A DNA stretch of 64,000 nucleotides from a phage, in sequence record OZ346182.1. One strand, written 5' to 3'. Positions 41,249-47,830 of the stretch are shown here, piece after piece (the stretch's first letter is position 1; each line of letters begins with the position of its first letter). The notes under the pieces were generated by a model that made no database searches, had not been told where the DNA came from, and worked only from the letters and a program-made list of their open reading frames with translations. The translations under genes were made by a program, and so were the position numbers.

Positions 41249-41316
41249 GAAACTCTGTAGGATATTCACAATAGACTAAGCCTTTCTTATCTGGTAAATT
41301 TTTCAGGTAAGGAGGG

Positions 41317-41504
41317 CTTTTTCATTTCAGATTTGTGCAGGTAGAGTTCTGTAGAGAAATCTATAGAGAAAATTTTGAACTCCAAAGAGAAAATTCATTC
41401 TCAAACTGTGCAGGTAATCTCCAAAGAGCTTTTTCATTTTCAAAACGTGCAGACCCCGCTCAGGTCGGGCAAGAAAAATCATTTTAGAATTGTGCAGGTA
41501 GGTT
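41317..41504 (+). repeat. four direct repeats, consensus TTCATTTY-N6-TGTGCAGGTA, followed by a C-rich polypyrimidine tract (41515-41560)
   Basis: Copies at 41317-41346, 41391-41420, 41429-41458, 41475-41504. Confidence 0.5.
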
Positions 41505-41676
41505 TTTATAGACAGCCAGCCCAACCCCTCTCCCCCTCTTACTCCCCCTCTCCCCAAAAGTCAAGAGAAAAATTTGTAGCGGATTGAAAAATAATTCTTG
41601 ATTTGCGTTCTGTTTTGTGGTAGTCGTGCGCACCCGTTTCATTACAGTTTTGCCAAAAATATTTTTAAAATTTTTA

Positions 41677-41736
41677 TTGACTCTTTGAACGTGGTTATCT
41701 AATATTTGCATCAACGGAGAGGGAATAACCTTCCCC
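41677..41736 (+). promoter_or_regulatory. sigma70-like promoter (TTGACT-17-TAATAT) plus 5'-leader hairpin (element A copy 1)
   Basis: -35 41677-82, -10 41700-05; hairpin GGAGAGGGAATAACCTTCCCC 41716-36. Confidence 0.55.
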
Positions 41737-41771
41737 ACTAAATAACTAACCTTAAACTAGGAGACTCTAAA

Positions 41772-42152
41772 ATGGCATATCGTGCACCTAAATTCATCAA
41801 TAAAGACAACTTTCGCAACGCACTGGAGAAGGCACTTGATGAGAATTTCAAAGGTAACGTTATCGTTGTTCACTCGTTCAATTTCAAGTATGATATCAAC
41901 GGGAACAAAATCAACCACTACACTGCAACCATGCTAGATGGTACACTATCAAGTGAAAAAGCCGTACTGAATGCACTAGCAGGACGCGGAAAAGTATTAG
42001 TAAGATGTGATAAGAGACGTTATCAAGGCGGCGCATATGGTTACGACGATGCTATTTATCATCTTGAAAATATGGGCTATCAAGTAGAAAAAGCTGGGGT
42101 ATCACAAATCATCGGTAGTGATGGCTACGTGACAATCTTCAAAATTAAATAA
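41772..42152 (+). CDS. hypothetical protein (cassette gene 1)
   Basis: 126 aa; AGGAG RBS; no motif recognised. Confidence 0.45.
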   Translation: MAYRAPKFINKDNFRNALEKALDENFKGNVIVVHSFNFKYDINGNKINHYTATMLDGTLSSEKAVLNALAGRGKVLVRCDKRRYQGGAYGYDDAIYHLENMGYQVEKAGVSQIIGSDGYVTIFKIK

Positions 42153-42154
42153 AA

Positions 42155-42210
42155 AGTACTTTACAAGGGGCTTATAGTTCGATAAAGTAAGCCCCAGATA
42201 AAGAGCTTTA
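42155..42210 (+). promoter_or_regulatory. element B copy 1: TTTACA-17-TAAAGT promoter-like sequence overlapping hairpin GGGGCTT...AAGCCCC
   Basis: AAGTACTTTACAAGGGGCTTATAGTTCGATAAAGTAAGCCCCAGATAAAGAGCTTTAC. Confidence 0.5.
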
Positions 42211-42240
42211 CCACTAAATCCTAAATTGGAGAACTTAAAA

Positions 42241-42531
42241 ATGGCTACTATCAAAAACGTTGTAATTCCTGCAAAAACTCGTGATGACGCTCGCATTATG
42301 GCTAAAAAGTTAGGCGGGAAAGTGGTTGACAACGGAAAACAATCTGCTGTAAGATGGGGCGTGAAGACTGATAGACAGTTGAAGTTAAAAAATTCACCAA
42401 TAAACCTTTTTACATGTGTAAACACTATCGGGAAGACAAATGTATACACGAAAAAGGCATATATTAGACGCGTAGCCTTAACATCCCCCATTCGTACAAT
42501 GAGAGGTTATGCAAAACTGAAAATTAACTGA
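42241..42531 (+). CDS. hypothetical basic protein (cassette gene 2)
   Basis: ATG 42241 after GGAGAA; 96 aa. Confidence 0.4.
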   Translation: MATIKNVVIPAKTRDDARIMAKKLGGKVVDNGKQSAVRWGVKTDRQLKLKNSPINLFTCVNTIGKTNVYTKKAYIRRVALTSPIRTMRGYAKLKIN

Positions 42532-42534
42532 TAA

Positions 42535-42591
42535 AGTACTTTACAGGGGGCTTAAAAGTTGGTATCTTAAGCCCCAGATAAAGAGCTTTAC
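42535..42591 (+). promoter_or_regulatory. element B copy 2
   Basis: AGTACTTTACAGGGGGCTTAAAAGTTGGTATCTTAAGCCCCAGATAAAGAGCTTTAC. Confidence 0.5.
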
Positions 42592-42619
42592 CACTAAATC
42601 CTAAACTGGAGATTCAAAA

Positions 42620-43132
42620 ATGAAAACTGTAGACGCTACCTTTGAAGTTGTAAAAGAAAAATTCACCATTATCTATGAAGCGGTAAATTGCTACGAAGCA
42701 AGCCATAACCTTGATAATTGGAAGTTTACAGATGACCATCAAGGCGGCGTGACTGTTAAAAATCCTAACTATCAGCATAATGCATTTAAATATGCAATCC
42801 CTTTGCATTACAGCCTTAAACAGCTTTCAAGTGACTATGCAAAACAAGGCCGGGAAAATCCATCGAAAGAGGCTTACACCAGCTTACAGAAAGAACTAGA
42901 AAGAGATTTAGAGGCTTCAGAATACAACCTTGCCGCGAAAGTTGTGGATGCAAACGGTAACACGGTTTTAGAAAGTTTTTATCTTGGTTATGCTTTCGAT
43001 TGGTGCTATCGTGACGGCGATGATTTAGAGGATAGACTAAAAGAAGAGGTGAACAATTCAGACGCAGAAACTGAAGTATTAGAACGTTTGGAATCGTTGA
43101 AAGACTCAGTGATGAATATCTTTAAGAACTAA
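42620..43132 (+). CDS. hypothetical acidic protein (cassette gene 3)
   Basis: 170 aa ORF. Confidence 0.45.
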   Translation: MKTVDATFEVVKEKFTIIYEAVNCYEASHNLDNWKFTDDHQGGVTVKNPNYQHNAFKYAIPLHYSLKQLSSDYAKQGRENPSKEAYTSLQKELERDLEASEYNLAAKVVDANGNTVLESFYLGYAFDWCYRDGDDLEDRLKEEVNNSDAETEVLERLESLKDSVMNIFKN

Positions 43133-43134
43133 AT

Positions 43135-45966: not shown

Positions 45967-46032
45967 AAACCTATGCAATCGCCTTATAAACACTGATTAG
46001 CCCCTCACAGGGGCTTTTAAGAGGCTTAAATC

Positions 46033-46266
46033 ATGCTTACAACCGTTTATCTTATCCTTTCTATTTGTAATGGTCATTCATGTGATTTTAAAGGGCTTGA
46101 TGAGTTTACAGGAAGTAAAGAAAATGCTGTTCAGGTCTGTCAGATAGCAAGGCAAGACTACCCCGCCAGTGATGACATACAATGTTACTTTAAGACAGAA
46201 GATGAAGATGGTATCTATTTCGATAGTGTAGACGGTCAATATGAAATAATTATAGAAAAAGACTAG
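46033..46266 (+). CDS. hypothetical small protein (cassette gene 11)
   Basis: 77 aa ORF. Confidence 0.35.
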   Translation: MLTTVYLILSICNGHSCDFKGLDEFTGSKENAVQVCQIARQDYPASDDIQCYFKTEDEDGIYFDSVDGQYEIIIEKD

Positions 46267-46323
46267 ACAAGCCTGATAAAAATCTGTAAATTACTAATCA
46301 ACGGGGAGGGAATGACCTTCCCC
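46264..46323 (+). promoter_or_regulatory. element A copy 4
   Basis: -10 TAAATT 46286-91, hairpin 46303-23. Confidence 0.5.
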
Positions 46324-46355
46324 ACTAAACAAAATCCTAAACTGGAGATTCAAAA

Positions 46356-46697
46356 ATGGCTTATGTAACCGTAATTACCGATAAAGCTGGCGCATCTTGG
46401 TCAACTCAGGTTAGTGATAAGATGTCGCCTATGCAGTGCCTAAAATACTTTGAACAGTGGAACAAAGGCGAGGACACAAGCCCCTTTCACGTAATGCAGA
46501 TTATTCATGTAGACAATGAAGGGAAGAAAACAACCCTGAATAGTGAGTACTACGCAAGCCGTTTTGAAACGAGAAGTAAAGCAATGAAGCTCTTACGTGA
46601 GGCCGGATATGGTCACATTGCCGCGATAATCTGGGATGACCTTCTAAAAAGTCAACGTATCAGCTATGTAAAGCCTGAAAAAATATTCATCAGTTAA
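46356..46697 (+). CDS. hypothetical protein (cassette gene 12)
   Basis: 113 aa ORF. Confidence 0.4.
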   Translation: MAYVTVITDKAGASWSTQVSDKMSPMQCLKYFEQWNKGEDTSPFHVMQIIHVDNEGKKTTLNSEYYASRFETRSKAMKLLREAGYGHIAAIIWDDLLKSQRISYVKPEKIFIS

Positions 46698-46823
46698 TCA
46701 ATAACTTACAAAAAACTTTTAAAAAAGTGTTGACAATACCCCTTGACATTGGTAACTTTGTTCGAGGGGGTTTATCTAAAAGGGATTCACTTAAAAGATT
46801 CTTTATAGATAAGCTTAAAAAAT

Positions 46824-46883
46824 TGCTTGCAATCAGCTATCAAAACAAGTAAATTACTAATCAACGGGAGGGATGACCTCCCC
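46824..46883 (+). promoter_or_regulatory. element A copy 5 (hairpin variant GGGAGG-GATGA-CCTCCC)
   Basis: -10 TAAATT 46850-55, hairpin 46866-83; tandem TTGACA at 46730-49 upstream. Confidence 0.5.
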
Positions 46884-46916
46884 ACTAAATAAAATCCTTA
46901 AACTAGGAGAGTCAAA

Positions 46917-47447
46917 ATGAACAAGTTTAAAGCTATCAACTTCATTCGTTCAAATGCTGTAATGTCAAAACCTGTAAAAGACACATACGAATTTCGCTGC
47001 AATGGGGTACACTTTGCAACCATCACTAAGTCAGAAAACGGGGCTTATTACGTACATCGTCGTAATGTTGCAACCGTTGTAGTCTCTCACTTTATGCAAG
47101 CTGTAGCGGAGTTATTACCGTTATTCTTAGAGATTTATCTAGGTGAGTGTAAAAACGTTCGTAACCACGTTAAAAACCTTTTAAACGGTTATAAAATGGC
47201 TTATGAACGTTCTATCAAGTCCTTGAACAAGTTCTATAAAGCCCCTGTAAATACTGTTTCAATGGCTTACAGTGTAAGCGGTGAGTTGGTTAGCCTCTTC
47301 GAAGTAGAAGAAATTGAACTATATGACTCACGTCCTAGCGGTTACTCTAAGACACTGGGAGAAGGATTATCTTTCAATATCAAGAACTTAGAAAAAACTT
47401 TAAAAGATATTGAAAAAGATATTGACGAAACAATAAAAAGTCTGTAA
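46917..47447 (+). CDS. hypothetical protein (cassette gene 13)
   Basis: 176 aa ORF. Confidence 0.4.
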   Translation: MNKFKAINFIRSNAVMSKPVKDTYEFRCNGVHFATITKSENGAYYVHRRNVATVVVSHFMQAVAELLPLFLEIYLGECKNVRNHVKNLLNGYKMAYERSIKSLNKFYKAPVNTVSMAYSVSGELVSLFEVEEIELYDSRPSGYSKTLGEGLSFNIKNLEKTLKDIEKDIDETIKSL

Positions 47448-47481
47448 ATTACTAATCAACGGGGAGGGAATGACCTTCCCC
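47422..47481 (+). promoter_or_regulatory. element A copy 6
   Basis: -35 TTGACG 47422-27, -10 TAAATT 47445-50, hairpin 47461-81. Confidence 0.55.
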
Positions 47482-47515
47482 ACTAAATAAAACCCTTAAA
47501 CTAGGAGATTCAAAA

Positions 47516-47764
47516 ATGGCAACTATCCGCGCTACTGTTAACGAGTTCGGTTTTTCCTCTCTGGATGTTAAATTTGACATTGTAGGCACTGATAACGCCT
47601 TTGAAATGGTGAAAGGTCTTATCAGTCAGACCATCAAAGGCTATAATCCTTCTAATGAGTTCTGGGAGGAAACAAAACAGGAAGTTCTTAAAGAGGGTTA
47701 TTCTTTTCACTATTGGGGTGAAAAAATTGTCTCCCTGTACTACGACAAAGAAGGCACTAACTAA
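47516..47764 (+). CDS. hypothetical protein (cassette gene 14)
   Basis: 82 aa ORF. Confidence 0.4.
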   Translation: MATIRATVNEFGFSSLDVKFDIVGTDNAFEMVKGLISQTIKGYNPSNEFWEETKQEVLKEGYSFHYWGEKIVSLYYDKEGTN

Positions 47765-47774
47765 TCGACGCAGC

Positions 47775-47830
47775 GGGGCTAAATAGCCCCAGATACCTTT
47801 ACAGCCCCTTTCCCATAGGGGCTTTTTTAC
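47775..47830 (+). terminator. tandem hairpins, second followed by T-tract
   Basis: GGGGCTAAATAGCCCC then AGCCCCTTTCCCATAGGGGCTTTTTTAC. Confidence 0.6.

Follow-up and report, generated by a model that had tools for sequence, protein, structure and literature searches.

Repeated promoter-like hairpin modules and cassette exchange in a small-gene array of a Felix O1-like phage

Positions 41250 to 47830 of a 64,000-nucleotide stretch of phage DNA (OZ346182.1; the whole stretch is hereafter called the window) hold an array of 14 small plus-strand genes, six copies of a repeated element A and six copies of a repeated element B, enclosed by two intrinsic terminators. All A and B copies lie within one 6.5-kb array and none was found elsewhere in the window. 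The 6.6-kb stretch matched 257 phage records, all close matches belonging to Felixounavirus (subfamily Ounavirinae) and the best being Escherichia phage vB_EcoM_ULIM3 (93.6% identity, 95% query coverage), and it is the counterpart of open reading frames (ORFs) 14-23 of Felix O1. We favor, as somewhat better than an even bet, the view that A and B are promoter/stem-loop regulatory cassettes that double as recombination linkers, and the array is best read, from its sequence, as an Ounavirinae counterpart of the promoter-early stem-loops (PeSLs) of T4-type phages in which the hairpin is placed differently. This view is carried by the repeats themselves, by RNA-foldable structures with compensatory changes, by a conserved promoter geometry, by purifying selection on the genes and by breakpoints that fall inside the modules. 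The array had been described in an earlier note made from the letters alone, whose observation is confirmed here and whose interpretation is partly supported.

Architecture of modules A and B

Both repeat families are present in the numbers first claimed. The hairpin of element A, GGGGAGGGAATGACCTTCCCC, occurs five times with at most two mismatches (none expected from 100 shuffles) and a sixth copy carries the shortened hairpin GGGAGGGATGACCTCCCC (GGGAGG-GATGA-CCTCCC); the core of element B, AGCCCCAGATAAAGAGCTTTAC, occurs six times, starting at 42190, 42570, 43171, 44246, 45042 and 45375 (none expected by shuffling). Modules run from stop codon to ATG, the stop of the upstream gene lying in or adjoining the module (inside the A -35 for g5 and g11 and inside the A -10 for g13), and every one ends in a strong Shine-Dalgarno sequence (SD) at the correct distance from the ATG (Table 1). 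The shared leader CCTTAAACTAGGAGAT is, within the window, restricted to the array. Modules precede 12 of the 14 genes, so that the claim that each gene is wired to one of them holds for these 12 and fails for g5 (43515), which overlaps the end of g4 and is translationally coupled to it, and for g11 (46033), which follows a plain hairpin.

The sigma-70-like geometry attributed to both elements is conserved beyond chance. A scan for the sigma-70 consensus with 17-bp spacing detected 11 of the 12 A and B copies, and the twelfth, A module 5, was recovered by pattern as TTGCAA-17-TAAATT. Among 159 unique A contexts collected from relatives with a pattern that fixed the spacing from -10 to hairpin and left the -35 free, 152 have TTGCAA, TTGACA, TAGACA, TTGACG, TTGACT or TTGATT exactly 17 bp 5' of the -10, and these -35-like hexamers are kept even inside the coding sequence of six different, unrelated upstream genes. 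On the distance from -10 to hairpin that collection is uninformative, because its pattern required it; in the first 11 genomes compared the distance is 10 nt, directly after ATCAAC, in 54 of 54 A copies, and it is again 10 nt in the A copies of Suspvirus and Mooglevirus. Given this constancy, the predicted start of A (7 nt past the -10) falls 3-4 nt ahead of the stem in all six window copies, and an mRNA started there would carry a hairpin at its 5' terminus. The stems of Suspvirus and Mooglevirus differ in sequence (GGGGAGG/CCUUCCCC, GGGGC/GCCCC, GGGA/UCCC, GGGC/GCCC) and keep their position, and a fixed position with a changing stem sequence points to a structural role of the hairpin at the mRNA 5' end.

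We infer from this layout that module A would act as a host sigma-70 promoter, built of a -35-like hexamer, 17 bp and TAAATT or TAATAT, with transcription starting 3-4 nt ahead of its stem-loop, which is GC-rich, has 6-8 bp and is followed by a shared A/U-rich leader and a strong SD. 5'-Terminal stem-loops slow RNase E-dependent decay, and by analogy the A hairpin probably protects the mRNA against degradation, most likely against decay that depends on the 5' end. The stem-loop in the 5' untranslated region (UTR) of ompA is said to be such an mRNA stabilizer, reportedly described by Emory, Bouvet and Belasco in 1992. Module A resembles it in having a stable hairpin a few nucleotides from the predicted 5' end, then a single-stranded leader and an SD, and differs in that its 5' end is a prediction from the fixed 10-nt distance.

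Element B had been described as GGGGCTT-loop-AAGCCCC with an overlapping promoter-like TTTACA-17-TAnnnT; the core and the overlap stand, but the hairpin is larger than was thought. Upstream of the core, GTAAAGTACTTTAC pairs with ATAAAGAGCTTTAC downstream, giving a two-part hairpin of about 60 nt. Folding of 70 nt around each copy returned the same structure for all six (free energy, dG, from -20.7 to -27.9 kcal/mol; z-scores, z, from -3.0 to -7.2), in which a lower stem of 11-13 bp, with one mismatch in it, is separated by a 2x2 or 3x3 internal loop from a GC-rich upper stem of 9-10 bp that bears an apical loop of 10-11 nt. The lower stem includes the TTTACA '-35' and often also the stop codon of the preceding gene.

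Conservation was examined in 206 B copies (126 unique cores) from relatives and from IMG/VR contigs, gathered with a pattern that required CTTTACA and AGATAA, for which reason the invariance of those columns is partly due to selection of the copies. In the 126 unique copies 98% of the paired cells do pair, compared with 30-59% when the partners are slid; the MAFFT alignment misplaces true partners in some columns at the top of the upper stem, and those pairs were excluded from this count. At the lower-stem pair 7-60, 100 copies have GC, 16 have UA and 2 have GU, with AU in Mooglevirus; another pair is UG in 115, UA in 7 and CG in 4, and in Erwinia phage SunLIRen the upper stem is GGUG/CACC instead of GGGG/CCCC. 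G-U pairs are frequent, and they exist in the sense (plus-strand) RNA only.

The apical part has a second pattern. The TA of the -10 is invariant in 126 of 126 unique copies and its last T is kept in at least 90%, the rest of the loop being variable; by our own count on the printed alignment (gap columns 18, 26 and 32) the spacer from TTTACA to the -10 is 17 bp in about 120 of the 126 and 18 in the rest, and, reading the printed copies, many have TGn directly 5' of the -10, that is, an extended -10. Because only the positions critical for sigma-70 are conserved in an otherwise variable loop, we think that B is likely to be a promoter as well as an RNA hairpin. Its DNA would act as a TTTACA-17-TAnnnT promoter, often with an extended -10 (TGn). 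The start is predicted at the final base of the upper stem or at the A after it, so that transcription from B would begin just past the upper stem, in the first bases of the 3' arm of the lower stem; B-initiated transcripts would lack the hairpin and read-through transcripts would carry it. With upstream transcription ending in the B hairpin, or its RNA being processed there, B would close one message and open the next.

The serious rival to a promoter in B is a purely RNA-processing one, to which we give a real but minor share of the probability. Polycistronic RNA would then come from the A promoters, and B would be a processing and stability signal of RNase III (or of a phage nuclease), cut in or near the internal loop, so that a 3' hairpin protects the upstream mRNA and the downstream mRNA is released. 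The processing signals of this kind in phage T7, R0.3 to R1.3, lie between early genes, and B is similar in architecture: repeated intercistronic hairpins, with an upper and a lower stem and an internal loop, stand between small early genes that the host RNA polymerase transcribes, and the mRNA upstream would be left with a hairpin at its 3' end. In all copies of four genera the B stem has some 21-23 bp, split into two parts by a 2x2 or 3x3 internal loop, and an imperfect duplex of about two helical turns, interrupted in this way, is what is expected of a T7-type site; the compensatory changes and sense-strand G-U pairs of B indicate RNA; and its -35 hexamer, being part of the lower stem, needs no promoter to be conserved. 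Moreover, the first module after the upstream terminator is an A wherever one was detected (7 of the 11 arrays first mapped, phiSUSP1 and Silverhawkium; none was detected before the first gene in Felix O1, SWJM-02, PHB11 and OPT-SAL01, where these stretches were uninspected). The T7 sites, however, are not known to have an embedded promoter-like site with an invariant TA, and they share no sequence similarity with B, whose cleavage is hypothetical. In a loop that otherwise varies freely, an invariant TA at -12/-11 with a nearly invariant T at -7, 17 bp from TTTACA and with TGn in many copies, is the signature of a -10. SunLIRen and Salmonella phage SSE121 have other modules, in which a different hairpin again overlaps -35 and -10, and an Rfam search of positions 41000-48400, with E values up to 1, found no family.

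The arms of B could also be read as DNA. Its half-palindromes (TAAAG-nn-CTTTA), one over the -35 and one at +2 to +15, would then be operators of a phage-encoded dimeric regulator that switches the B promoters on or off as a temporal class, the RNA hairpin being a by-product. GTAAAGTACTTTAC is indeed a perfect 14-bp palindrome, both arms are near-invariant in Felixounavirus, Suspvirus, Mooglevirus and Kolesnikvirus while synonymous divergence (dS) of the neighboring genes is 0.24-0.78, and in Felix O1 the expression peaks differ in time among genes that share a module type, which makes an added control plausible. We nevertheless consider operators quite improbable. In the g3>g4 and AAATTGC subfamilies the upstream arm is no palindrome but can still pair with a downstream arm that has changed as well (GC to UA in 16 copies), which fits pairing between the arms and not two independent operators; the G-U pairs are A-C mismatches on the other strand; and no candidate regulator was identified.

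That the two hairpins are ordinary rho-independent terminators is the least probable account, with hardly any weight in our estimate. The terminator scan found a GC-rich hairpin with a U-tract only at 41278-41319 and 47803-47823, the borders of the array, plus two weaker matches, both inside genes, and none of the A or B copies qualified. No T-run follows either hairpin on either strand, and without a U-tract neither is a canonical terminator. Still, the stem-loops of the RB49 PeSLs do terminate transcription, and in the record of phage KhF1 (KT184313) five features of the opposite strand are annotated as 'Rho-independent terminator', of which four coincide exactly with A hairpins in the part matched by the query and one is in the upstream flank. 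All array genes are on the plus strand, and the G-U pair of the A stem is present only in plus-strand RNA. The minus-strand terminators of KhF1 are rejected because they have no T-run and because there are no minus-strand genes. Most small array genes are unannotated in the same GenBank record, and both these gaps and the terminator features look like annotation errors. The left border is terminator t13 in Table 2 of Whichard et al. (2010), and the right one is at the position of their t23 (PMC3185647).

Two other candidates for the B arm were set aside. Reading GTGCTTTACA as a T4 MotA box places it 19 nt from the -10, where about 12 are expected, and the Felix O1 paper reports no functions of the MotA/AsiA type (PMC3185647). 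Reading B as an integron attC site gives poor matches to the core sites RYYYAAC...GTTRRRY (6/7 and 5/7, by eye), and Pfam shows no integrase-like domain among the array proteins.

Modules as breakpoints of cassette exchange

Cassette maps of about 20 related arrays in four genera show that these differ by gain, loss and movement of whole cassettes. The gene g9 is missing in many relatives, [B]g9[B] becoming [B]; Felix O1 is without g8-g11 and g1-g2, BPS17L1 without g12 and g13, and OPT-SAL01 and the relative L006 without g13, and extra genes (x1, x2, x4, x5, x9) are present in the arrays of others. Cassettes also change place and partner: x1 stands before g1 in KhF1 and between g11 and g12 in L038, while g1, g12 and x5 have an A in some phages and a B in others. 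In L038 (IMG/VR UViG_2974556886) g2 is present twice and B at least 10 times, and PHB11 has a gene for 52 aa between the two copies of a duplicated 35-bp leader. In SWJM-02 (3930-4200) g6 is present but frameshifted, being either a pseudogene or a sequencing error.

In three-way comparisons the deletion junctions consist of the left copy up to the module and the right copy from the module onward. In Felix O1 (without g8-g11), BPS17L1 and L006 the crossover maps to the interval from the -10 to the ATG of A, and in Mushroom (without g9) it maps inside B; all five breakpoints of the mapped chimeric junctions fall inside A or B. In these five cases it is at modules that cassettes were gained, lost or exchanged. 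Since the copies share 20-90 bp of near-identical sequence, homologous recombination of the phage would use A and B as linkers, and whole cassettes, each self-contained with its regulatory module (stop codon to ATG) and one or two ORFs, could be deleted, inserted, moved or paired with the other type of module with the expression of their neighbors undisturbed. On this view the region is hyperplastic, an array of accessory genes that are small and early/middle.

A given loop variant of several bases recurs at up to five junctions, with 7-11 variants per junction. Such exchange of loop and leader variants among copies means that concerted evolution could mimic conservation, and A and B might then be selfish or neutral repeats homogenized by gene conversion, their promoter and hairpin features being incidental. 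This seems to us very unlikely, given that position, spacing and structure are kept where the sequence has been replaced (the A stems of other genera and the GGUG/CACC stem of SunLIRen), that -35-like hexamers are maintained independently in the six unrelated upstream contexts and that every module ends in a well-placed SD.

Several points weigh against regarding the modules as promoters and linkers. The -10 hexamers of B are weak (TAAAGT, TATCTT, TAGGAT), and TTTACA, lying inside the lower stem, could be conserved for pairing alone. Covariation in B comes from few independent events, with double changes in 2 of 17 pairs. Published end-point reverse transcription PCR of Felix O1 has ORFs 16, 20, 21 and 22 (g3, g7, g12, g13) peaking at 5 min and ORFs 14, 17, 19 and 23 at 25 min, with no homologous ORF late, which bears out the description of these genes as early, but the timing does not sort A-genes from B-genes. 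That indels are flanked by modules proves little, because nearly every intergenic gap holds one, and it is the chimeric junctions, not the flanking, that are informative on crossover inside modules. In the literature searched, no Felix O1-like phage had a mapped transcription start, a mapped RNA end, usable RNA-seq data or a promoter assay. Finally, AGATAAAGAGCTTTAC is near-invariant in four genera, which is more than a hairpin and a promoter need, and a sequence-specific factor may be involved. Taken further, B would be a doubly coded signal, a promoter in the DNA and a two-part hairpin in the read-through RNA, whose arms are near-invariant in four Ounavirinae genera because a dedicated phage or host protein of structure and sequence specificity (a nuclease, an RNA-binding regulator or a recombination helper) recognizes them, processes the early RNA and promotes cassette exchange. 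We think this improbable; if true, a lytic phage would possess something integron-like.

Relation to known elements and wider distribution

PeSLs are mobile regulatory cassettes of T4-type phages; reporter fusions and inverse PCR have shown that they act as promoters and terminators and as sites of recombination that release mini-circles (Arbiol et al. 2010, PMC2839356; Comeau et al. 2014, PMC4122927). Each reaches from a stop codon to an ATG and contains a strong sigma-70 promoter and an SD; their stems are 'generally GGGG...CCCC', they are concentrated in hyperplastic regions, and they recombine by crossovers between -10 and ATG (PMC2839356, PMC4122927). The modules described here share with them the sigma-70-like -35 and -10 with a 17-bp spacer, the GC-rich GGGG...CCCC stem-loop and the SD, the extent from stop codon to ATG, the clustering before small ORFs without assigned function in a variable region, and the indels and replacements between close relatives, with crossovers inside modules, between -10 and ATG. 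However, the stem-loop of a PeSL is upstream of the promoter and works as a terminator, whereas here the A hairpin is just past the predicted start, the 60-nt two-part hairpin of B spans -35, spacer and -10, and neither has a U-tract. Two module classes also alternate in one array here, and the phage belongs to the Ounavirinae and not to the T4-type phages (Tevenvirinae and relatives). PeSLs are known from reporter fusions and mini-circles, the Ounavirinae array from sequence alone. As the array lacks two of the defining features of PeSLs, we describe it as probably working like PeSLs and do not count it among them. A literature search for PeSL-like elements outside T4-type phages gave nothing usable.

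Both repeats had been noticed in Felix O1. Whichard et al. (2010; PMC3185647) listed a 57-bp direct repeat, CTTTACATGGGGCTT...CCCCAGATAAAGAGCTTTACCACT, which is B, and a 39-bp repeat, TTGACACTGGTTTTTAGATAGATTAAATTACACATCAAC, which is the A promoter, with two copies of each; they were given as repeats only, were not called promoters or hairpins and were not linked to variation in gene content, and downstream secondary promoters were stated as not known. Our literature search found no later paper interpreting these repeats of Felix O1.

The same array layout is found in phiSUSP1 (Suspvirus), Silverhawkium (Mooglevirus) and SunLIRen (Kolesnikvirus), with B near-unchanged and A stems specific to the lineage, and SunLIRen encodes a g3 homologue of 45% identity. 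SunLIRen also has a third repeated module (5470-5580, 7970-8075 and 8370-8480), in which a -35 hexamer is accompanied by a GGGGTTA...TAACCCC hairpin over the spacer and -10 (TGAGACTAT), then GTCGAAAC and a shared leader. Outside the subfamily, SSE121 (Seunavirus, Vequintavirinae) has a g3 homologue among small genes at 1340-3200. In front of each of these genes there is TTGACx-17-TAnnnT and, about 10 nt further on, a GC-rich hairpin that is followed by a leader and an SD; in two cases the hairpin overlaps the spacer and -10. As judged by sequence, the module logic appears alike in this myovirus of an unrelated subfamily. If our interpretation is true, promoter/stem-loop linkers for swapping small accessory genes are not peculiar to T4-type phages but operate in Felix O1-like and, judging from one locus, rV5-like phages, and may be a general design of large virulent enterobacterial phages. 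With such linkers the accessory-gene cassettes of these genomes could be delimited by a simple rule, and A and B would provide two compact natural expression modules for phage engineering. Because relatives of Felix O1 are used in Salmonella typing and biocontrol, a freely exchangeable part of their genome is of practical interest.

Gene products and flanking sequences

The 14 plus-strand ORFs of 67-180 aa are present as described, and their coding signal and conservation in relatives, the lack of which had been named as grounds for rejecting the array, are borne out by purifying selection in all of them (ratio of nonsynonymous to synonymous divergence, dN/dS, 0.04-0.22; dS 0.24-0.78; 5-21 orthologues each). 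Recognized domains are indeed missing: no protein scored above the curated Pfam cut-offs, the matches being sub-threshold only (such as BRCT with 17.7 bits, where the cut-off is 21.3), and in PHROGs each of the 14 is its own family, with function unannotated. Homologues of g3 are also found in other Ounavirinae genera, in Vequintavirinae and in a Providencia phage.

The protein that the earlier note called possibly ADP-ribosyltransferase-like (ART-like) is g10, for which an ART core fold is predicted from a structure model of moderate confidence (predicted local distance difference test, pLDDT, 66.8). Among 16 homologues H5 (YHGT) is nearly invariant and Y36, Y38 and E80 are invariant; these are the candidate catalytic residues of a putative H-Y-E class enzyme. 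It has no Pfam match, its homologues are confined to Ounavirinae, and a sequence search of the PDB with g10, g3 and g13 found nothing below E 0.1. A Macro-domain protein (Pfam E 1e-07) is encoded at 40463-41248, just 5' of the array, and the two could jointly write and erase ADP-ribosylation. A host-takeover or anti-defense role of the array genes is a guess by analogy; a literature search for anti-defense genes in Felixounavirus gave nothing usable. If the array works as proposed, it is a list of self-expressed small genes, including the ART-fold protein, for host-takeover and anti-defense screens.

Table 1. Features of the array, in window coordinates (-35 and -10 are predicted promoter hexamers)
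Feature	Coordinates	Strand	Details
Intrinsic terminator, left array border, closes upstream unit	41278..41328	+	17-bp stem, then T-run
A module 1, precedes g1	41677..41771	+	-35 TTGACT 41677-41682; -10 TAATAT 41700-41705; hairpin 41716-41736 weakened, 2 mismatches; leader, SD AGGAG
g1, 126 aa	41772..42152	+	phrog_4495; dN/dS 0.10
B module 1, precedes g2	42151..42240	+	hairpin ~42151-42211; -35 TTTACA 42160-42165; -10 TAAAGT 42183-42188; leader, SD; dG -20.7, z -5.4
g2, 96 aa, ATG start	42241..42531	+	phrog_5089; dN/dS 0.19
B module 2, precedes g3	42531..42619	+	hairpin 42531-42591; -35 42540-42545; -10 TATCTT 42563-42568 after TGG (extended -10)
g3, 170 aa	42620..43132	+	confident model without known fold match
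B module 3, precedes g4	43133..43224	+	hairpin 43133-43192; -35 43142-43147; -10 TAGGAT 43165-43170; subfamily with compensating changes in both stems
g4, 98 aa	43225..43521	+	phrog_4401; dN/dS 0.22
g5, 110 aa, hydrophobic N-terminal segment, overlaps g4 end	43515..43847	+	TGA stop in A module 2 -35; dN/dS 0.16
A module 2, precedes g6	43844..43937	+	-35 TTGACA 43844-43849; -10 TAAATT 43867-43872; hairpin 43883-43903; leader, SD
g6, 90 aa	43938..44210	+	phrog_3436; dN/dS 0.09
B module 4, precedes g7	44207..44296	+	hairpin 44207-44267; -35 44216-44221; -10 TATCTT 44239-44244; dG -27.9, z -5.9
g7, 134 aa, ATG start	44297..44701	+	phrog_4327; dN/dS 0.06
A module 3, precedes g8	44711..44802	+	-35 TTGACA 44711-44716; -10 TAAATT 44734-44739; hairpin 44750-44770
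g8, 67 aa	44803..45006	+	phrog_3623; dN/dS 0.09
B module 5, precedes g9	45003..45090	+	hairpin 45003-45063; -35 45012-45017; -10 TAAAGT 45035-45040; dG -25.1, z -7.2
g9, 82 aa, cassette present or absent among relatives	45091..45339	+	dN/dS 0.15
B module 6, precedes g10	45336..45423	+	hairpin 45336-45396; -35 45345-45350; -10 TAAAGT 45368-45373
g10, 180 aa	45424..45966	+	predicted ADP-ribosyltransferase fold, residues ~1-125
Plain hairpin between g10 and g11, no promoter-like site	45999..46015	+	AGCCCCTCACAGGGGCT + TTTT; from sequence
g11, 77 aa, after plain hairpin	46033..46266	+	TAG stop in A module 4 -35; phrog_4640; dN/dS 0.04
A module 4, precedes g12	46264..46355	+	-35 TAGACA 46264-46269; -10 TAAATT 46287-46292; hairpin 46303-46323
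g12, 113 aa	46356..46697	+	phrog_4318; dN/dS 0.10
A module 5, precedes g13	46827..46916	+	-35 TTGCAA 46827-46832; -10 TAAATT 46850-46855; shortened hairpin 46866-46883
g13, 176 aa	46917..47447	+	TAA stop in A module 6 -10; phrog_4725; dN/dS 0.11
A module 6, precedes g14	47422..47515	+	-35 TTGACG 47422-47427; -10 TAAATT 47445-47450; hairpin 47461-47481
g14, 82 aa	47516..47764	+	phrog_4559; dN/dS 0.21
B remnant, no gene after, just before closing terminator	47775..47802	+	GGGGCTAAATAGCCCCAGATACCTTTAC; from sequence
Intrinsic terminator, right array border	47803..47829	+	terminator scan

Some elements of the array belong to neither module class. The plain hairpin before g11, which has an equivalent with a different loop in phiSUSP1 and Silverhawkium, may be a weak terminator or a stabilizer, and the B remnant before the closing terminator may have been left behind by a cassette since lost. 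An extra promoter-like TTGACA-17-TAACTT, with a second TTGACAT in its spacer and CGAGGGGG after it, lies between g12 and A module 5 (46727-46760); it is outside both repeat families and is conserved in L006.

In the non-coding gap of 340 bp from the left terminator to the first A promoter, TGTGCAGGTA occurs three times exactly (41334, 41407 and 41491) and nowhere else in the window. These copies (window 41320-41560) are embedded in longer TCATTTyA...TGTGCAGGTA repeats, with a C-rich tract next to them (41519-41557), and the set looks, by its sequence, like candidate binding sites. On the other side of the array, positions 47830-49400 comprise about 1.5 kb without ORFs and, in a tRNA scan, without tRNAs, with an 87-nt inverted repeat of 99% complementarity (48128-48214 and 49281-49367), a 32-nt inverted repeat (48443-48474 and 48635-48666) and many CTTGTTAG/CTGTTAAG repeats. 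Because the GenBank records of several relatives start or end there, this region may hold the genome terminus or an origin.

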